A stretch of DNA of 10,451 nt from a virus. Taxonomy: Duplodnaviria; Heunggongvirae; Uroviricota; Caudoviricetes. This document shows positions 534-10,451 of this stretch, piece after piece. Position numbers and translations under genes: made by a program. Below the pieces are notes generated by a model. That model had not been told where the DNA came from. It did no database searches and saw only the letters and a program-made list of their open reading frames with translations. Every line of letters starts with the position of its first letter. The stretch's first letter is position 1. The stretch lies in IMG/VR virus record IMGVR_UViG_2562617113_000011, positions 1-10,451 of that record; one strand, given 5' to 3'.

Positions 534-1076
534 TTACTTGTCTTTATCCGGCTGAAACTTATCAGGCACATTTCCGGTAGTTTCCATCAGATAATCGGAC
601 AGCATTCGCGGGATGTTTTCATCAAGTTTTGTGCATGCGTTACAGGCTCTGACAACTTCTTTTTTCAGGCCATCCAGCATGGCGGGGGTCATCTGTGGGA
701 AGCGCCTTTGCATGGTAAGCGGCAGGCTGTCCATGATAGATGAAATCTGACTCGCCAGTTTTGAAAGCGCATATATACAAAATTCCGTACTAATCACGTC
801 GCCGCGTTCGCGCTCGTTTTTAAGCTCCTGCGCCTCCGCCTGCGCTGTCAACAATCTGATCCTGACTCGCAAAAGCTCATCATTATCAATCTCGCCTTTG
901 TCGTCTGTAATCTGGTTAATTGCATTGCTAACCCGATTGTCTATTACGCTGGCAACATCATAAAACGCCTCGCGGCCTTTACGTTCAACGGGAGTCACTC
1001 CCCACTTGTCGAACGCTGTCGCACTTACACGGCAGCTTTGCGCCATGTTTTTTTTGTTCATCAGGTGCGATTTCAT
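534..1076 (-). CDS. Terminase small subunit, lambda Nu1-like (180 aa)
   Basis: The C-terminal two-thirds aligns closely to my recollection of lambda gpNu1 (e.g. AQAEAQELKN, LPLTMQRRFP, LDENIPRMLSDY); the N-terminal DNA-binding region is divergent. Start chosen at the ATG at 1076 (GGGGA SD, 5-nt spacing); alternatives are GTG 1088 and ATG 1061. Confidence 0.8.
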   Translation of the reverse strand: MKSHLMNKKNMAQSCRVSATAFDKWGVTPVERKGREAFYDVASVIDNRVSNAINQITDDKGEIDNDELLRVRIRLLTAQAEAQELKNERERGDVISTEFCIYALSKLASQISSIMDSLPLTMQRRFPQMTPAMLDGLKKEVVRACNACTKLDENIPRMLSDYLMETTGNVPDKFQPDKDK

Positions 1077-1181
1077 CAATATCCCCACTTAAGTAATGTT
1101 TCAGGTTGGTGTATTTGTTTTATCTTTCCCTTTTTATTCATAGAGATAGAGCGAACAACAAAACCACCACCAGCACCCGAA

Positions 1182-1228
1182 AAAGGCTCATAAATAGCGA
1201 AAACCCGCGCGTCTGCCGCCCCGTAACG
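1182..1228 (-). other. Lambda-like cos site (cosN-like 12-mer GGGCGGCAGACG at 1210-1221 on the minus strand, flanked by lambda-identical sequence)
   Basis: The minus strand reads CCGTTACG-GGGCGGCAGACG-CGCGGGTTTTCGCTATTTATGA. As I recall it, lambda reads GTTACG-GGGCGGCGACCT-CGCGGGTTTTCGCTATTTATGA, so the 22 nt after the 12-mer are identical and 5 of 12 overhang positions differ. It lies directly upstream of the Nu1-like gene, as in lambda. Confidence 0.6.
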
Positions 1229-1277
1229 GGTCCATATGCCGGAAAGGACCCGCCAGCCAGAGCGGGCCCTAATTTCA

Positions 1278-1622
1278 TCAACCAATCAACTTATTGCGCC
1301 CTTTCAGGGCATTACGCCTGGCGCGTTCAATCTTGAGGCATAACGCCGCATCAGGTTTTTCGGGGGTGGGAACAAGGCAATAATTTGATGCGCGCGGAAT
1401 GTTGTTAATCCACGCAACAACTTCGCTTAAATACCATGCCTTGCGGCCTTTCGTAACCTGTACGCGTTCGGGGAACTCTCCGCGAGCCTCAAGGTTTAGC
1501 AATGTGCGACGGCTAAGGGTTGTAAGCTCCACTACCTGATCCATATCGACAAGACGCTCGCTTAAGCGCATTTTATCATCGATATCTAATAGCTCTCGTA
1601 GCTGACTATCTCTTTCAATCAT
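1278..1622 (-). CDS. AlpA/excisionase-family HTH DNA-binding protein embedded in the head/packaging operon (114 aa)
   Basis: The central segment LVDMDQVVELTTLSRRTLLNLEARGEFPERVQVTKGRKAWYLSEVVAWI fits the AlpA/Vis pattern (hydrophobic-T-x-LSRsT-x(6)-G-FP ... W ... EV-x-W). ATG at 1622 lies 9 nt after the D-like stop, with GAGG overlapping that stop. Confidence 0.55.
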   Translation of the reverse strand: MIERDSQLRELLDIDDKMRLSERLVDMDQVVELTTLSRRTLLNLEARGEFPERVQVTKGRKAWYLSEVVAWINNIPRASNYCLVPTPEKPDAALCLKIERARRNALKGRNKLIG

Positions 1623-1631
1623 TCTCGTACC

Positions 1632-1973
1632 TCACACACGTGCCAGCGGCTGAACAGAAATACCTGAGCCAACAAACGCAGCAACTTTTGCTGATAGTTG
1701 TGTTACAGACTCAGGCCAGTTCAGAGCATCAACATTTAAGACGCCGGTTTTATAAACCTGAGCCTGCGTTTTTGTCGCTGTATCGATTTGTACAGCGGAA
1801 ACATAAACAGCTTTGCCTGCGCTCGTTCCATCCCATACCACCAGTGCACCAGTTACATCTTCTTGCATCAGTGGCGTAAACGCAGGGATTACCCCTTTAT
1901 TGGCTGAAAATATCCCCAGCGTAGTAACCAGTGCTTCAGTGCCAGCCATGAGTTCAGTGTAATGAGTAGCCAT
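1632..1973 (-). CDS. Head decoration protein, lambda gpD-like (113 aa)
   Basis: Size and motifs match remembered lambda gpD (PAFTPLM, VVWDGT, LNWPE, AFVGSGISV). Sits immediately downstream of the E-like gene (9-nt gap) with an AAGGGGGAG SD. Confidence 0.75.
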   Translation of the reverse strand: MATHYTELMAGTEALVTTLGIFSANKGVIPAFTPLMQEDVTGALVVWDGTSAGKAVYVSAVQIDTATKTQAQVYKTGVLNVDALNWPESVTQLSAKVAAFVGSGISVQPLARV

Positions 1974-1982
1974 TGCTCCCCC

Positions 1983-3023
1983 TTAACCAATGCGAACGGT
2001 AACAAAACGATTGATGCGGGCCGGTATTGGCTGTGGTGCAGAGTGCGTTTGTACGTACTCAATAGCCGGATCACCTGGTACGATGTAATTTTTCGGCGCA
2101 AGTTCGGCTTTAGTAAGCCCCATTCTGATTAACTCAGGATCCTGAATGCCACCGTAGGCAACGATGCCCTGTAATGATGTGTTGCCAAGCACCATCAAAT
2201 CAGGATCAAGGAAATATCTTTCAGTTCCGTCCTCGTCGGTATAACGTCCGCTATATACCACAATAGCAACATCGCCAACGTAACCCTTGAAGCTTACAGA
2301 ATCCCCAAGATTTTTCAGGGCCGTTTCAAGAACGGAATTAGATCCCCGTCGAGTATCAAGGCAATCTTTTACTGCTTTAAAGGCGCGGTATTTTTTCCAT
2401 ACGTTGCGGCCCATTACGATGATATTTGTAGTACCTTCGCTGATTTCTGCGTACTCTTCGATGTCATCGTTTGGATCAAATGTTGATAAATCTCTACCGC
2501 CCCACTCCGTACCGCCGAACTGCGTGATAATATTTTGTGGTTTTATATTCCAGTCCAGTTCATAACGTTCAATTCCATCGCCTTCAATGATATTTTTCCC
2601 CGTTGTAACCGCCTGAACAGCAAGCCACTCAATACGCGCACGAATTGCCTGCGCTTGTCTTACTAACGCTCGCTTTATTTTGAAACTGCGTGATGAATAT
2701 GCATTGAATTGTTCCGGTGATACGCCTGGTTGACGAACGGCTATTTTATTTGGGTCGATACTACTTTTTGGCTTCATATAGCCAGGACGAATTACTTTTG
2801 ATTCGTAGCCTTCATCGCGTGAGACTTTGCTACCAACCATAGGGGAACAAAATGCAGCCATCGGGATGTCTGGATCGTCAATAATATCAAGCGCAATATC
2901 CCGCGTCTCAAATGTAACGACTCGCTTAAAAAACAGGTTTATAAATAAAGAATTAATCTGCCATTGAATATCTTCGGCATTAACAACCTGTATTAACATA
3001 GCTGGTGAATATAAATCACTCAT
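1983..3023 (-). CDS. Major capsid protein, lambda gpE-like (346 aa)
   Basis: Long collinear similarity to remembered lambda gpE (NIITQFGGTEWGGRDLSTFDPNDDIEEYA, FKAVKDCLDTRRGSNSVLETA, GDVAIVVYSGRY, MVLGNT, VPGDPA); 346 aa against 341 aa for gpE; AAGAGG SD 4 nt before the ATG. Confidence 0.85.
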   Translation of the reverse strand: MSDLYSPAMLIQVVNAEDIQWQINSLFINLFFKRVVTFETRDIALDIIDDPDIPMAAFCSPMVGSKVSRDEGYESKVIRPGYMKPKSSIDPNKIAVRQPGVSPEQFNAYSSRSFKIKRALVRQAQAIRARIEWLAVQAVTTGKNIIEGDGIERYELDWNIKPQNIITQFGGTEWGGRDLSTFDPNDDIEEYAEISEGTTNIIVMGRNVWKKYRAFKAVKDCLDTRRGSNSVLETALKNLGDSVSFKGYVGDVAIVVYSGRYTDEDGTERYFLDPDLMVLGNTSLQGIVAYGGIQDPELIRMGLTKAELAPKNYIVPGDPAIEYVQTHSAPQPIPARINRFVTVRIG

Positions 3024-6572: not shown

Positions 6573-7025
6573 TTAATCCCCGTCCGTCGCTTTTCTTAAA
6601 ATAACCTCTGTCACGAAATCAGCATAATCGGCGGCAATATTCAGTACATCAAGTCCCGTTGATTTATATTCTTTCGTGGAAAGTAAGAAAAAATCCGCTC
6701 TAATAAGTTCTGGCATTGACGAAAGCGCATCAGCCGCATCACCAGGAACGCCGGAAAATTCCTGTTTCAGGGCATTAAAACGATCATCACGCATAACCCC
6801 CCCATTTTCACAATCAGTAATCAGGATGGCTTTAGCCTCATTCAGTGCCATATCAGCACTAAATTGCATAACAGCCAGTGAGTGAGGAACGAAAGCCCCG
6901 GCATATTCTGTTTCGCTGGTGGCGTGCTTATGTGCCCTGTCCGCGATAACAGAAATATCAATCAGCGCGTGCATCAGCGTTTTGATGGCTTCGGCGGCTG
7001 CGTCCTGACGGGTGTTATTGCACAT
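6573..7025 (-). CDS. Hypothetical protein (150 aa)
   Basis: Strong AGGAGG SD 6 nt before the ATG at 7025. The longer 300-aa ORF in the track is an R/P/S-rich upstream extension and was rejected. Start overlaps the stop of the upstream gene by 11 nt. Confidence 0.55.
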   Translation of the reverse strand: MCNNTRQDAAAEAIKTLMHALIDISVIADRAHKHATSETEYAGAFVPHSLAVMQFSADMALNEAKAILITDCENGGVMRDDRFNALKQEFSGVPGDAADALSSMPELIRADFFLLSTKEYKSTGLDVLNIAADYADFVTEVILRKATDGD

Positions 7026-7557
7026 GGCGCACCTCCTGACGAATACGGGCGGCGAATACAGCGACACAACCGGACGGGCAATGGTTACGCGCTTCGCGTT
7101 CCGTCCAGGCGGTGACGTGGATGATTTGGGATTCTGACGCGCCAAAGATGATAAAGCGCCAGATAAAGACAGTGTGAGAATGTATAAGGGTAGGGATAGT
7201 AGCCATGTTGGCAGCCTCCTTTGACAGTGAAGAATTTCCACCGCAGGAAACGCCAATTTCGCTGGCGGTGGACTGAACGGGGTTGGCGTAACCGGCGTCA
7301 AAGGGAACCGGCGCTTCCGAAGAAGCCCCCGCCCAGCCCACCATAACTTTGATGTGAGCGAATGCGGACGATAAAAAAGACGCTGGCGCGTCATATATCG
7401 CCTTTGACATTTCCAAGACGCCAATCCCGGCACCAGATTTTGCTGGTGCGGGTAAATCATAGCCCTGGCTGGCATTGGCGATCAACAGGTTTTTTACATC
7501 GGGTTTATTCAGGTTGTGCGAGTCCCGCCCTTGCGGGTGTGTGGTATGATTTAACAT
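7015..7557 (-). CDS. First gene of the replication operon: Ash-family-like N-terminal region fused in frame to an Icd-like (host cell division inhibitor-like) C-terminal region (180 aa)
   Basis: The N-terminal half carries motifs I associate with P4-like Ash proteins (AKSGAGIGV, MVGWAG, PVPFDAGYANPVQSTASEIGVS). The C-terminal 63 aa (FIWRF ... ESQIIHVTAWTEREARNHC ... AVFAARIRQEV) resembles Icd-like proteins and has its own AAGGAGG SD before an internal ATG at 7206. GAGGT SD before the ATG at 7557. Family assignment is from memory. Confidence 0.5.
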   Translation of the reverse strand: MLNHTTHPQGRDSHNLNKPDVKNLLIANASQGYDLPAPAKSGAGIGVLEMSKAIYDAPASFLSSAFAHIKVMVGWAGASSEAPVPFDAGYANPVQSTASEIGVSCGGNSSLSKEAANMATIPTLIHSHTVFIWRFIIFGASESQIIHVTAWTEREARNHCPSGCVAVFAARIRQEVRHVQ

Positions 7558-7649
7558 AGCTACCTCGATACTTCTGCTATCGTTGGTGGTTAGAAGCCCT
7601 GCGAGTGGTAACGACACTTGCGGGGCTTTGCATTTATGCGCCTTGATAA

Positions 7650-7730
7650 TTTTAAGGTGTGGCCCACTATATGTTTTAGGTGTGGCCCACGTCAAGAGTT
7701 TTATTTGTGCTTTTTCTGTGTATACTGTCC
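7650..7730. promoter_or_regulatory. Divergent promoter/operator region: two 13-bp direct repeats AGGTGTGGCCCAC (7655-7667, 7678-7690) overlapping candidate sigma70 promoters on both strands
   Basis: Minus strand: -35 TTGACG (plus 7690-7695), 18-bp spacer, -10 TATAGT (plus 7666-7671), so both repeats fall in the -35/spacer/-10 region. Plus strand: -10 TATACT (7721-7726) with upstream TGTG, 30 nt before the RHH-like gene. Each repeat contains the dyad GTGG-C-CCAC. Confidence 0.55.
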
Positions 7731-7756
7731 CCCACCAATCCACCAGAGGAATAGAA

Positions 7757-7936
7757 ATGGCAACGGGTACAACAAACGCAAAATCACAAGCTCTAAAGGC
7801 TCGTGTACCACACGAAATAGTAAACGCCATGGAATCAGTGAAAGAATCAGGCGAAAGCACATCACAATTCATCATTACGTCAATGCAAGGCGAGATCAAA
7901 CGCCGCCAGCGGCGCAAGGCCAAAGAGCAGGAGTAA
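7757..7936 (+). CDS. Small DNA-binding-like protein, possibly ribbon-helix-helix (59 aa); candidate repressor acting at the adjacent repeats
   Basis: GAGGAA SD 6 nt before the ATG; the N-terminal segment KSQALKARVPHEIVNAMESV resembles an Arc/CopG-type strand-helix; basic C-terminal tail. Fold is inferred, not computed. Confidence 0.55.
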   Translation: MATGTTNAKSQALKARVPHEIVNAMESVKESGESTSQFIITSMQGEIKRRQRRKAKEQE

Positions 7937-7993
7937 CCATCACCAGCGCTGTGGTGCGGTGAACTGTGGCGCACTGGGTTACAGGTATCTACG

Positions 7994-8191
7994 ATGACTG
8001 ACAAATCATTAAAGAAATTATCCTCATCCAGGAAAAAACAACGCAAAAATGCGGTAAGCGAACAAGAACAGGAGAGATTTGCGCCATGTGCGTTTGCCCT
8101 TGAGAAGTTCTTAAAAGAGTACAGGCGCACAAAAATGGGGTCGCATACCTGGAAAACATCGCGGCATGGCAATGTTAAAGAGCAGGAATAG
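7994..8191 (+). CDS. Hypothetical highly basic small protein (65 aa); coding status uncertain
   Basis: ORF following the RHH-like gene in the same orientation with a weak SD (AGGT, 7-nt spacing); K/R-rich, no motif recognised. A plus-strand terminator follows at 8295-8322. Confidence 0.35.
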   Translation: MTDKSLKKLSSSRKKQRKNAVSEQEQERFAPCAFALEKFLKEYRRTKMGSHTWKTSRHGNVKEQE

Positions 8192-8294
8192 CCCACCAGC
8201 AAGCCAGCACACTGATCACATTGCCCACCAGCCGCAAATGTGGCATTGTTGGCAATGCTCATGCGTTGGGGATAACGTGTAGCTTGTGTCGAAG

Positions 8295-8322
8295 GGCCAC
8301 CGTAGCGGGTGGCCTTTGTTTT
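8295..8322 (+). terminator. Intrinsic terminator for the small plus-strand operon (stem GGCCACC/GGTGGCC, then TTTGTTTT)
   Basis: 7-bp GC stem with a 6-nt loop followed by a T-rich tract on the plus strand only. Confidence 0.55.
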
Positions 8323-8360
8323 GCCTGTTATCCGGCAATTGTGGCGCTTCGCTACACGGT

Positions 8361-8446
8361 TGATATAATCCCACTGCACTGATTCATTTTTTGCGCAGTA
8401 GGTTAATTGTTCGCAAGGGCGCTCCGGCAACGGGGCGCTTTTTGTT
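8361..8446 (+). ncRNA. Candidate small RNA unit: extended -10 promoter (TGaTATAAT, 8361-8369) followed about 50 nt later by a strong intrinsic terminator (8419-8446)
   Basis: Perfect TATAAT preceded by TGn; hairpin GCGCUCCG-GCAA-CGGGGCGC (GNRA-type loop) followed by TTTTTGTT; no ATG-initiated ORF between them. Lies on the opposite strand just past the 3' end of alpA. Confidence 0.3.
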
Positions 8447-8473
8447 ATGTTCATCGCGTTACGCCTCACACCA

Positions 8474-8680
8474 TTACGCAGCCGTTCCGCGCGCTTCTTC
8501 CTCGCGCTCTTTCAGCCAGGCCAGCACTTCATCTTCATACCAGCCAACACGACGCAGACCGATTTTGAAGCCTTTCGGGAATTTTCCTGCGTTGATCATG
8601 TCCTGTAGCGAACTGTCTGCCTTGATGCGCAGAATATTTTTTACTTCCTGACGGGTAAGTATTTTTCTGATTGTTTCCAC
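8474..8680 (-). CDS. alpA: AlpA/Vis-family phage transcriptional regulator / excisionase-like protein (68 aa)
   Basis: HTH pattern LRIKADSSLQDMINAGKFPKGFKIGLRRVGWYEDEVLAWL typical of AlpA; GTG start at 8680 with GAGGT SD 8 nt upstream; position next to the integrase. Confidence 0.8.
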   Translation of the reverse strand: METIRKILTRQEVKNILRIKADSSLQDMINAGKFPKGFKIGLRRVGWYEDEVLAWLKEREEEARGTAA

Positions 8681-8813
8681 TATGTTTTACCTCGTTAATC
8701 CGGCGTATTCCGGTGATAAATACGGTAAAACAGGGCTGGGCGGGAAAAACAGTACCCACCGTTTTAAAACGGTATCCACTGTTTTTTATCTCATTGATTA
8801 CGCTTTTCTTTCT

Positions 8814-9209: not shown

Positions 9210-10451
9210 TTACACGGCACGGATACCCCTTTTACCACTGGCTATGGTCACTCCGGTAGCTGCGGCCTCTACAAATTCCCCCCACCAGCGCATAAGCACC
9301 ACGCGCTTTTCCAGGTAGTTACTTCGGTTATATGCTCGCCTTACCTCGTTCGTGTCCACGTGTGCGAGTGCGGCCTCGATTACGTCCGGCTCGAATCCTT
9401 CCTCGTTCGCTGCTGTACTGAATATGGCGCGTAATCCGTGAGACACCAGCACACCAGCGTATCCCATCCGGCGCAATGCAGCGTTAGCGGTCTGGCTGTT
9501 CATTGGCAGCATTGGATTTTTAAGGCTGGGAAAAACATGTTCCCTGTGTGCGCTGATTGGCTTCATTGTTTCCAGTACAGCCATCGCCTGACCGCAAAGA
9601 GGGATCACATGGTCACGGCGCATCTTCATGCGTCCGGCTGGAATCGTCCATGTTTCGGCATCGAGATCTATTTCTTCCCAGCGTGCGGCGGCTGCTTCGG
9701 CTGGGCGTGCTACGGTCAGCAGTTGCCACTCGATTAGCAATCTGGTTTGCCGTTCTATGCTGGCGACCGATAAATCGTGCATTAGCTGCGGTAGCTGTTC
9801 CGGTCGGATGGTTGGCATATGCTTTTTAGTGGGGGAAGGGAATGCCTTGCGGACGTTCGCGGCGGTGTTGATGTCAATCAGCCCACTGTTGGCAGCAAAA
9901 TCCATCACTTCATTGATGCGTTGTAAAACGCGTTTCAGAGTTTCCAGGTTGCCGCGTGCTTTAATGGGTGTGAGTATCTCAACAAAGCGGCGAGCGGTGA
10001 GGGTATCTATTGGCGTGTTTCCGATGTACGGGAATACGTATTTTTCCAGGGATCGCCAGATATCCTTAATCGTGTTGTAAGCCAGATTCTGGCCTTTTTT
10101 CATCTCGTACCAGTCCAAGGCAACTTTTTCGAACGTGTTGCCCTTTTTCCTGCTCTCTGCTTCACGTTTCCGGCGTTCGTAGTCCTGTGGGTCAGTTCCC
10201 TTTGCTATGAGTGACCTGTATTCATTCCGTCGCTCTCTGGCATCAGACAGGGAAACATCATTTAGCGATCCAAGGCTGATAATAGTCCGTTTTTTATCTG
10301 CCGGGCGGTAGTACGTAAAACGCCAGATTTTTGATCCGGAGGGCTTCACCAGAAGAAATAATCCTCCGCCATCCTGCAGGGTATATTCCTTTTCCCCTGG
10401 TCGTGCGTTTTTGATCTCCGTAATAGTTAGTGGGGTGGTTTTTCGTGCCAT
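9210..10451 (-). CDS. int: P4-type tyrosine integrase (site-specific recombinase, 413 aa)
   Basis: N-terminus MARKTTPLTITEIKNARPGEKEYTLQDGGGLFLLVKPSGSKIWRFTYY is typical of P4/CP4-57-type integrases; C-terminal catalytic region with HGLR and the RRAYNRSNY tyrosine motif. The start codon is the last 3 nt of the window. Confidence 0.9.
   Translation of the reverse strand: MARKTTPLTITEIKNARPGEKEYTLQDGGGLFLLVKPSGSKIWRFTYYRPADKKRTIISLGSLNDVSLSDARERRNEYRSLIAKGTDPQDYERRKREAESRKKGNTFEKVALDWYEMKKGQNLAYNTIKDIWRSLEKYVFPYIGNTPIDTLTARRFVEILTPIKARGNLETLKRVLQRINEVMDFAANSGLIDINTAANVRKAFPSPTKKHMPTIRPEQLPQLMHDLSVASIERQTRLLIEWQLLTVARPAEAAAARWEEIDLDAETWTIPAGRMKMRRDHVIPLCGQAMAVLETMKPISAHREHVFPSLKNPMLPMNSQTANAALRRMGYAGVLVSHGLRAIFSTAANEEGFEPDVIEAALAHVDTNEVRRAYNRSNYLEKRVVLMRWWGEFVEAAATGVTIASGKRGIRAV

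Follow-up and report, generated by a model that had tools for sequence, protein, structure and literature searches.

A likely P4-type immunity switch in a PICI-like satellite: 'Ash' DNA read as RNA genes upstream of an Icd-like gene

The 181-codon frame on the minus strand at 7015..7557 of the window (the whole 10,451-nt stretch of viral DNA that was analysed) probably serves a P4-type switch in a PICI-like satellite as its immunity and early-leader region, and the DNA read as 'Ash' there encodes RNA. This assignment draws on RNA and protein family membership, three-way covariation of the C4 loop and its targets, conservation of the frame, and the lack of a coding signal in the Ash part. A nested-gene immunity switch is already known from satellite P4; by its sequence, the one described here is in a phage-dependent island with the gene order int, alpA, divergent RHH operon, icd, DUF4222, P4-family primase, SSB and capsid genes. 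Gram-negative PICIs have been described as having only Int, AlpA and Pri-Rep in common with P4 (PMC6092414). The core features are:

7015..7557, minus strand: eta-like ORF of 181 codons (ATG 7557..7555, TAA 7017..7015)
7373..7449, minus strand: isrK-like leader RNA (P4 seqA leader; Rfam RF01394)
7408..7401, minus strand: seqA target GUCAAAGG, within the isrK leader
7261..7348, minus strand: C4 or P4-CI-type antisense immunity RNA (Rfam RF01695)
7215..7225, minus strand: region of the seqC-type target, with GUCAAAGG at 7225..7218, overlapping the icd SD AAGGAGG (7221..7215)
7015..7206, minus strand: Icd-like or P4 Kil-like ORF of 63 aa (NCBIfam NF033153), with its own SD
6573..7025, minus strand: next ORF, 150 aa (SD AGGAGG 7037..7032, ATG 7025)

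The antisense RNA, its targets and the Icd-like gene

The isrK match scored 70.5 bits against RF01394 (gathering score 50), and a terminator scan placed an intrinsic terminator at the isrK 3′ end (hairpin 7392..7379 and a U-run to 7373). The C4 match was full length (model positions 1-87 of 87) and scored 82 bits against a gathering score of 45; the RF01695 model has two internal hairpins and is closed by a long stem, and the family includes the P4 CI RNA. The region from the leader to the ATG folds at -115.6 kcal/mol (z = -5.1). The C4 specificity loop is UUCCCUUUGACG (7307..7296, minus strand), and its sequence CCUUUGAC can base-pair with GUCAAAGG at either of two sites, 7408..7401 and 7225..7218, with duplex energies in the window of -13.5 kcal/mol for loop:seqA and -12.8 kcal/mol for loop:seqC. 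Of 70 loop types, none pairs better with the window's two targets than the window's own loop, and loop, seqA and seqC vary together across five aligned elements. Over the 70 distinct loops found in relatives, cognate duplexes were approximately 6-8 kcal/mol better than non-cognate duplexes (p 3e-44 and 4e-42), the family-wide loop:seqC values being -13.9 kcal/mol for cognate and -5.9 kcal/mol for non-cognate pairs (p 3e-44). These co-varying loop/target variants form a catalogue of 70 immunity specificities.

The sequence-only reading had described the C-terminal 63 aa of the frame as Icd-like, with its own AAGGAGG-N8-ATG at 7206, and both points hold: AAGGAGG (7221..7215) is followed by the 8-nt spacer CTGCCAAC and ATG 7206..7204 on the minus strand, and the ORF scored 59.7 bits (cutoff 25) against NF033153, 'host cell division inhibitor Icd-like', which gave 76.1 bits for P4 Kil and 49.8 bits for a P1-type Icd. 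Identity is low, at 31% to P4 Kil and 41% to P1-type Icd. Diversity at codon positions 1, 2 and 3 of icd was 0.34, 0.36 and 0.51, a third-position excess, and pN/pS was 0.5-0.7 in seven of eight pairs (1.03 against the remaining relative, L019). Homology to P1 Icd and P4 Kil makes it plausible that the 63-aa product blocks cell division, and translation from ATG 7206 would yield a toxic division inhibitor of the Kil/Icd type. The icd ribosome-binding site itself belongs to the antisense-RNA target, a point that the sequence-only reading had missed. Because ATG 7025 of the 150-aa ORF overlaps the final 11 nt of icd, the two are probably translationally coupled. The 150-aa ORF had no family match in Pfam or NCBIfam, and its identification with P4 ORF151, which is of equal length, was rejected as there is no similarity (E = 47). 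Nor did the 63-aa ORF, or the RHH gene and the 65-aa ORF described below, match any Pfam family.

Control purely of the P1 immI type, in which C4 would mask the icd ribosome-binding site alone, Rho polarity would follow, and seqA and read-through would play no role, is unlikely. The position of seqC over the SD is exactly that of P1-type loci, and the downstream ORF overlaps the icd stop as ant overlaps icd in P1, both of which fit such control; against it stand the covariation of seqA with the loop, which is as strong as that of seqC, and a P4-like context, in which the frame resembles eta, alpA is a neighbour and the primase is of the P4 family.

The read-through frame and its upstream extension

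The frame had been reported as open from ATG 7557 to the stop at 7015, and this was confirmed (181 minus-strand codons ending in TAA 7017..7015). It does not begin at 7557 as had been thought, being stop-free to 8511 with its first ATG at 8454; this far upstream extension, and a predicted promoter inside the ORF, had gone unremarked in the sequence-only reading. The features upstream of and within the frame are:

7015..8454, minus strand: full stop-free frame of 479 codons (ATG 8454, GAGG 8467..8464; stop-to-stop 8511..7015)
8474..8680, minus strand: AlpA-family regulator gene (Pfam Phage_AlpA, E 4.5e-8)
7757..7936, plus strand: divergent YlcI/YnfO-family small protein (NCBIfam NF041551, 68 bits), with homologues in relatives
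7994..8191, plus strand: 65-aa ORF 3′ of the YlcI/YnfO-family gene, with homologues in relatives
7666..7695, minus strand: predicted upstream regulated promoter (TTGACG-N18-TATAGT, 10/12 consensus matches)
7456..7485, minus strand: predicted internal constitutive promoter, PLE-like (TTGATC-N18-TATGAT, consensus scan)
7168..7503, minus strand: in-frame module of 336 nt (112 codons), defined against relatives L244, L277 and L296

ATG 7557 is preceded by the SD GAGG (7566..7563, minus strand; spacer 5 nt), and the 181-codon frame crosses the predicted internal promoter, the two RNA genes and the start of icd before reaching a stop that it has in common with icd. Conservation of the frame was assessed in an Icd-class set of 86 non-identical loci, each with an isrK+C4 module followed by an Icd-like ORF of 58-67 aa. 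The in-phase frame was open over the whole module in 84 of these loci and closed in two, while the two other frames were open in just 1 and 13 loci, counts that overstate the number of independent events owing to shared ancestry, as de-replication was by exact identity of the upstream 330 nt only. Continuity of the frame is beyond chance, and is typical of Icd-class relatives rather than unusual. In isrK+C4 loci with a downstream gene of 140-158 aa, the in-phase frame was open in only 2 of 28, which indicates that conservation of the RNAs alone is not what keeps it open. A read-through frame universal to the RNA module, as suggested by a viral sample (open in 68 of 68), was refuted by a species-wide genome sample, in which it was closed in 42 of 166 isrK+C4 loci, mostly those with the 140-158-aa gene but also P1. 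The claim of a conserved read-through frame is limited to the Icd class.

The 336-nt module contains the PLE-like promoter, isrK, C4, seqC, the SD, the ATG and 13 codons. In module-less relatives, as seen in these three, the leader MLNHTTHPQGRDSHNLNK is fused directly to the Icd core YIWRF, and ATG 7557 with its SD and leader, which are conserved, corresponds to the actual icd start. A reading that gives a function to the RNAs and the 63-aa Icd alone, and takes the frame upstream of 7206 for an untranslated accident of ancestry and of G+C-rich conserved RNA, is distinctly unlikely. P1-type loci function without a long read-through frame, so the RNA module can work without one; frame-shifted two-ORF versions are present in some relatives; and the frame lacks amino-acid conservation. 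These observations are outweighed by the contrast between the Icd class and the other class, which carry the same RNA module, by the conserved start that serves as the real icd start in module-less relatives, by a module length of exactly 112 codons, by an upstream frame that remains stop-free despite approximately 50% sequence divergence, and by the experimentally reported translation of P4 eta (Forti 1999, as summarised in PMC10111431). If the frame is translated as in a P4-type switch, the polypeptide of 181 aa or longer would be a by-product whose C-terminus is the same Icd sequence.

The 479-codon frame opens with ATG 8454, 20 nt past the alpA stop, and the first ATG in relatives is 13-22 nt past that stop. 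The frame may be coupled to alpA, as the long P4 ORF is to the alpA/vis homologue. It is antisense to both plus-strand genes, with coinciding third positions by phase analysis, and is stop-free in 74 of 75 relatives without amino-acid conservation. Antisense stop-avoidance was not significant within the two plus-strand genes alone (P 0.2-0.8), and was significant in the intergenic parts (P ~5e-4 to 9e-4). A frame serving only CI-RNA antitermination was ruled out, as an RHH-selected sample showed the long upstream frame just as well in the 65 of 80 relatives that have neither isrK nor C4; any function must therefore be more general. It is quite possible, if short of probable, that the frame, which runs antisense through the RHH operon, its terminators and the promoter/operator region, is a selected 'ribosome track'. 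Ribosomes translating helper-induced alpA read-through transcripts would then shield these against Rho and the C4 immunity RNA alike, convergent transcription might silence the repressor operon, and RNA polymerase would be delivered to icd and the replication genes. If this is true, the track would carry the principle of P4 eta over to an antisense overlap the size of a gene, and the long antisense stop-free frame would be a candidate for selection on translation itself, not on protein.

The Ash profile

An HMM search for both families, which the sequence-only reading had suggested, placed each above its cutoff (Phage_ASH 66.6 bits, Icd-like 59.7 bits). PF10554 Phage_ASH matches aa 36-124 of the 181-codon ORF (E 3e-18, cutoff 26). 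This profile region is the translation of isrK, C4 and seqC DNA, with the Rfam matches lying exactly beneath it, and the Ash protein part proposed earlier is not supported: the DNA matches the isrK/seqA and C4/CI RNA genes and carries no codon-position signal. Diversity hardly differs between codon positions 1, 2 and 3 in isrK (0.29, 0.29 and 0.30) and in C4 (0.32, 0.31 and 0.29), against the values given above for icd, with no third-position excess in the Ash segment upstream of 7206. pN/pS was approximately 0.75-0.92 over isrK-C4 and 0.6-1.8 in the leader. The PF10554 segment does not evolve as a protein by this test, in which a third-position excess and pN/pS below 1 were looked for together, and protein-level selection was not detected. 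Judged from its sequence families, the DNA read as 'Ash' encodes two RNAs: the isrK/seqA leader, which carries an intrinsic terminator, and the C4/CI antisense RNA. In 277 phage records the isrK+C4 module, at 74-86% DNA identity, lies upstream of unrelated genes (Ant, Rha and Icd).

A genuine fusion of two protein domains, Ash and Icd, in which Ash would function within the Bro/Rha antirepressor network and the internal ribosome-binding site would give a second isoform, is highly improbable: the good PF10554 score, a real N-terminal Rha-like domain in the same frame in one relative (L015), a Bro-N-like fragment in another (L084) and the treatment of Ash as a Rha-protein domain in the literature (PMC8951638 and PMC10111431) are set against a profile region that is isrK, C4 and seqC, the absent third-position excess, the pN/pS values, the same DNA upstream of unrelated genes, and the 28 loci in which the frame over the same RNA module is mostly interrupted by stops. 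Of the two options in the sequence-only reading, fusion or nested expression, nested expression of a short Icd fits the P4 arrangement of kil within eta, and the Ash-Icd domain fusion is not supported.

The statement that Ash and Icd are usually separate small genes is correct for annotation and incorrect for sequence, and RefSeq and other NCBI records differ: a locus with 91% identity is split in RefSeq into an 'ash family' pseudogene and an Icd-like gene, and the same frame is annotated elsewhere in NCBI as 'Icd-like' proteins of 340-554 aa. On the RNA reading, the widely used 'Ash' family would be a translation of two RNA genes, and the annotations touched would include 'ash family protein' pseudogenes, 'Rha/Ash' architectures and the very long 'Icd-like' proteins. 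Satellite detection would also be affected, as one scheme uses PF10554 as a marker of P4 epsilon (PMC8628076); in P4, PF10554 matches the old 'cI' ORF, not epsilon.

The proposed switch and known systems

The switch model was built by homology to P4 and P1, and its promoters, RNA processing, termination, antitermination by translation and division phenotype are put forward by analogy. In the quiescent state, the constitutive promoter at 7485..7456, within the ORF, would produce transcripts from approximately 7449, most of which would stop early, and those reading through would be processed to a stable C4-type RNA. On nascent transcripts, the C4 loop would pair with the leader site seqA and with seqC, which overlaps the icd ribosome-binding site; this would block icd translation and cause premature termination, so that Icd would be off together with the coupled 150-aa ORF and the replication genes. 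Upon induction, transcription from the operator-flanked promoter at 7695..7666 and/or a helper-activated alpA promoter would yield transcripts that include the same-frame start codons 7557 or 8454, and ribosomes crossing the promoter, leader, C4 and seqC would prevent RNA pairing, hairpin formation and Rho loading, giving immunity-insensitive expression. In this PICI-like island, a P4/P1-type RNA switch would govern a toxic division inhibitor and replication genes, which is a testable model.

The predicted PLE-like promoter lies within the long ORF and stops approximately 7 nt short of the isrK 5′ end; promoter-like hexamers align at the equivalent place in P4, SfV and a P1-like phage. The predicted promoter at 7695..7666 overlaps two direct repeats GTGGGCCACACCT (7690..7678 and 7667..7655), is upstream of ATG 7557 and faces the divergent RHH gene, whose YlcI/YnfO-family product is ribbon-helix-helix-like and likely a repressor; relatives have different repeat sequences at this position. 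The promoter consensus scan gave three matches in the region, with 2.1 expected by chance. When promoter regions were grouped by single linkage at 75%, most loci fell into one lump, which was uninformative.

The order of the P4 immunity region is PLL - orf88/vis - eta - PLE - seqA - cI RNA - seqC - kil. In P4, eta and kil form a nested gene pair around the CI RNA, as summarised in PMC10111431, a secondary source that was used for P4 alongside a translation of the P4 sequence. The historical P4 'cI protein' ORF has Ash, Icd-like, C4 and isrK matches in the same order as in the window, and its frame gives 197-199 aa from the MMM starts with a nested 65-aa ORF, in agreement with the published eta/kil pair that the summary describes. 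P4 and the window are alike in element order, in the Rfam families isrK and C4, and in an Icd-like ORF of 63-65 aa in frame at the 3′ end of a longer ORF, which comes after an alpA homologue and starts upstream of an internal promoter (predicted here). In both, the SD is within seqC, the following gene overlaps the stop, and a P4-family primase is downstream. The element in the window is an island of the PICI-like type and not a P4; it has lambda-type capsid E, gpD-like and Nu1-like genes, and no epsilon, sid, delta or psu gene was seen in the window. The two also differ in loop specificity, in the spacing of isrK and C4 (approximately 83 nt more in P4), in the divergent RHH operon between alpA and the switch in the window, and in the open frame, which is 479 codons and antisense to that operon in the window versus 197-199 codons in P4.

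In the immI region of P1/P7 (c4 RNA - icd - ant1/2), as in the window, the C4 target overlaps the icd ribosome-binding site and a small icd is overlapped by the next gene (P1-like locus L002). P1/P7 make their C4 RNA by processing the leader of the operon itself, and by analogy the window's C4 is presumably processed likewise to a stable immunity RNA. Unlike the window, the P1-like locus has its in-phase frame closed 65 codons upstream, with no eta-like ORF, and an antirepressor as its downstream gene. The Salmonella Gifsy-1 isrK - orf45 - anrP region (PMC4825925) resembles the window in that isrK sRNA is formed by termination, a processed C4-like RNA (STnc1160) lies inside orf45, the nucleotides of orf45 are conserved and its amino acids are not, and the next gene is translationally coupled; in the window, termination and processing are predicted and coupling is probable. 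It differs in having an antirepressor downstream instead of icd, and in that Gifsy-1 IsrK is reported to be a translation activator in trans (PMC4825925).

The nested reading frame and its Ash segment

The continuous frame from 7557 to 7015 with an internal AAGGAGG-ATG at 7206, described in the sequence-only reading, was present on the minus strand, together with two RNA genes.

ATG 7557..7555 to TAA 7017..7015, minus: long ORF, with GAGG at 7566..7563 before the ATG; 181 codons, no stop
ATG 7206, minus: 63-aa ORF in the same frame, with AAGGAGG at 7221..7215 and an 8-nt spacer
7449..7373, minus: isrK (RF01394), Rfam 70.5 bits, above the gathering score
7348..7261, minus: C4 antisense RNA (RF01695), Rfam 82 bits, above the gathering score

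A Pfam profile search placed a Phage_ASH match (E 3e-18) at amino acids 36-124 of this ORF, and the terminal 63 aa scored 59.7 bits with the NCBIfam model NF033153 (host cell division inhibitor Icd-like; cutoff 25); with the frame, the internal Shine-Dalgarno and ATG, and both family matches present, the original observation was correct. The 63-aa product shares 31% identity with P4 Kil and 41% with a P1-type Icd, and is by sequence a Kil/Icd-type inhibitor with a presumed effect on division. Nested expression of a short Icd-like product, which had been proposed, is supported and fits the nested geometry of P4 eta and kil. The frame is open from ATG 7557 as claimed, but does not start there, since it is stop-free to 8511.

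The view of Ash as a protein domain did not survive. An Rfam scan of the window placed isrK and C4 exactly beneath the Phage_ASH match, and in 277 phage records isrK-C4 DNA of 74-86% identity precedes genes that are unrelated (Ant, Rha, Icd). Diversity per codon position was computed over 85 loci of the Icd class (isrK and C4 followed by a 58-67-aa Icd-like ORF).

Diversity at codon positions 1/2/3 over 85 Icd-class loci
icd ORF: 0.34/0.36/0.51
isrK: 0.29/0.29/0.30
C4: 0.32/0.31/0.29
Segment 7557..7450: 0.54/0.48/0.49

The usual third-position excess was confined to the icd ORF among the four regions, indicating that the Ash part is conserved as nucleotides and not as protein. 'Ash' as translated RNA is one of two parts of this analysis worth follow-up, the other being the extended antisense open frame. 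On the minus strand, the leader after ATG 7557 (including hairpin CCCGCAAGGGCGGG, 7524..7537) and the 35 nt before it (7590..7555) showed 85-95% nucleotide conservation even where the flanks had diverged by ~50%; no amino-acid constraint was seen in either stretch, and an RNA or DNA element that has so far escaped recognition may lie here. Just 5' of the conserved leader is a hairpin at 7598..7635 (minus; AAAGCCCC...GGGCTT), which has no T-run and whose equivalents in two relatives lacking the isrK/C4 module (L277, L296) differ in sequence and keep the stem.

Predicted C4 pairing and the probable immunity switch

The loop of the second C4 hairpin, UUCCCUUUGACG (7307..7296), includes CCUUUGAC, the exact complement of which, GUCAAAGG, occurs twice: at 7408..7401 inside the isrK leader (seqA) and at 7225..7218 overlapping the icd Shine-Dalgarno (seqC). 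Across five aligned elements (the window, P4, SfV, a P1-like phage and an E. coli island of 91% identity), loop and targets vary with mutual complementarity kept. Loci gathered from viral contigs and one genome per species by the conserved SD-ATG motif gave 166 non-identical loci with both RNAs and 70 distinct loop sequences, over which mean duplex energies were -13.9 kcal/mol for cognate versus -5.9 for non-cognate loop:seqC pairs (Mann-Whitney p 3e-44), and -12.2 versus -6.2 kcal/mol for loop:seqA (p 4e-42). Of the 70 loops, that of the window gave the strongest predicted pairing with the window's seqA and seqC.

The same arrangement is found in P4, where Rfam C4 matches the known CI RNA and Rfam isrK matches the seqA leader. 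The P4 'cI gene product (AA 1-137)' ORF matches Phage_ASH, with its last 65 aa matching the Icd-like model (76 bits). Read stop-to-stop, this frame gives 197-199 aa from three consecutive Met codons and a nested ORF of 65 aa, reportedly the sizes published for eta and kil by Forti et al. 1999. P4 epsilon matches PF25738, and PF10554 matches the old cI/eta ORF instead (P4 locus L004, 8168..8584 versus epsilon at 7888..8175). A survey of P4 satellites equates Ash with epsilon and takes PF10554 as the epsilon marker (PMC8628076); this marker would in fact detect the CI-RNA region. PMC10111431, which summarises that paper, describes P4 Kil as a truncated Eta, full-length Eta as translated from the upstream late promoter only and coupled to the alpA homologue, and eta translation as preventing termination. 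The switch in the window belongs to the immunity type of P4 (eta/kil/CI RNA) and P1 (c4-icd), set in a PICI-like island, and the finding is real and explained by known biology.

Candidate promoters were taken from a consensus scan that returned 3 sites against 2.1 expected by chance, and both are predictions.

7485..7456, minus: predicted promoter TTGATC-N18-TATGAT, inside the ORF, ending ~7 nt upstream of isrK
7695..7666, minus: predicted promoter TTGACG-N18-TATAGT, facing the divergent RHH gene
7757..7936, plus: divergent YlcI/YnfO-family (RHH) gene

P4, SfV and the P1-like phage have promoter-like hexamers at the position equivalent to 7485..7456. The most likely mechanism is a five-step scheme of C4 immunity and ribosome override. 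During quiescence, the leader and C4 RNA would be made from the internal promoter, and C4 would pair with seqA and also with seqC across the Shine-Dalgarno, blocking icd translation and causing early termination, so that icd, the overlapping 150-aa ORF (ATG 7025) and the downstream replication genes would be silent. Upon induction, transcripts initiated upstream would bring in-frame start codons, from which ribosomes would spread over the leader, C4 and seqC and override immunity.

Stop-free frames across and beyond the RNA module

The in-phase frame was open across isrK and C4 in 84 of 86 loci with a 58-67-aa downstream ORF and in 2/28 loci with the same RNAs and a 140-158-aa downstream gene, counts that are indicative and not independent because loci were de-replicated by exact identity only and share ancestry. 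This second class, and a P1-like locus in which the frame was closed after 65 codons, show that stops can arise in the module without destroying the RNAs. Within the Icd class stops are avoided, which fits translation mattering for its own sake, as with P4 eta.

7015..8511, minus: extended stop-free frame; first ATG at 8454 (GAGG 9 nt upstream), 479 codons from there
8474..8680, minus: AlpA
7994..8191, plus: 65-aa ORF

ATG 8454 lies 20 nt past the alpA stop, and the extended frame runs antisense to the two genes of the plus-strand RHH-type, probably repressor-encoding operon, across two terminators on that strand and through the promoter region. In the window alone, synonymous resampling of the two genes found the overlapped parts unremarkable (P 0.2-0.8), and the 518 nt intergenic on the plus strand were stop-free with P ~5e-4 to 9e-4. 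In the first sample (SD-ATG-motif loci), relatives with a single frame had 14-42 stops in the other two frames of the same stretch, and other relatives with the RHH cassette showed two abutting ORFs, the first ending 11-28 nt before the 7557-type ATG. When loci were chosen by the RHH gene only, 74 of 75 non-identical loci had a stop-free antisense frame of 171-765 codons, whose third positions in every case fell on those of the plus-strand genes; other frames reached 3-67 codons, with one of 139. In-frame stops were absent from the promoter region in 49/58 distinct sequences versus 0/58 in either other frame (mean of 5 stops in these two).

The pN/pS of the extended frame was ~0.9-1.26 in the promoter region, at ~50% divergence, and ~1 outside the overlapped genes, and no protein is conserved. 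The 479-aa translation has 2308 protein-database relatives, many being NCBI 'Icd-like' proteins of 340-554 aa. Selection against stop codons, i.e. for translation of alpA read-through transcripts, is the proposed and probable reading of these comparisons; strict frame continuity is dispensable, as frame-shifted versions exist in relatives. On the plus strand, the RHH operon closes shortly before alpA with two intrinsic-terminator-like hairpins (8292..8317 and 8415..8442), whose antisense translation (e.g. KSAPLPER) accounts for what looks like peptide conservation where the long frame begins. In one phage (viral contig L114) the in-phase frame had no stop over 411 codons and lay antisense to a HigB/HigA-like pair, and in another (L015) it began with a genuine Rha-like domain, so the read-through frame recurs in unrelated upstream contexts.

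The host island and possible exchange of the module

The window also encodes a P4-type integrase (9210..10451), DUF4222, a P4-family primase and SSB, and on the minus strand at 534..3023 a lambda E-type major capsid protein, a gpD-like decoration protein, a second AlpA and a Nu1-like small terminase. On account of these last four genes the island resembles a capsid-encoding PICI, although its capsid is of another type than that of the published cf-PICI prototype. The element is not a P4 but a PICI-like satellite that carries capsid genes. In PICIs of Gram-negative bacteria, the helper induces alpA, which in turn switches the island on (PMC6092414).

The isrK/C4 module was absent from 65 of 80 relatives in the sample chosen via the adjoining RHH gene. 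In module-less relatives the ATG equivalent to 7557 begins a 69-aa Icd-like protein in which MLNHTTHPQGRDSHNLNK is joined to YIWRF..., and in the window an in-frame block lies between the MLNHTTHPQGRDSHNLNK leader and the Icd core.

7503..7168, minus: in-frame block of 336 nt (112 codons), containing the promoter-like site, isrK, C4, seqC, the Shine-Dalgarno, ATG 7206 and 13 codons

Upstream of the module, some relatives (L019, L058) still carry a remnant of the 5' end of icd, which suggests that the immunity module has been exchanged by recombination at or within icd.

Two direct repeats, GTGGGCCACACCT (7655..7690, minus), overlap the predicted promoter at 7695..7666 and bracket its -10 region, and relatives carry other repeats at the equivalent place (e.g. 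GTGGCTGACACC, ACTGGAATCCAGT); the pattern resembles a set of operator specificities that correspond to RHH variants. Upstream of alpA, a 34-bp near-perfect palindrome, ACAGTGGATACCGTTTTAAAACGGTGGGTACTGT (8749..8782, minus), is a candidate site for a helper-dependent activator or for AlpA autoregulation.
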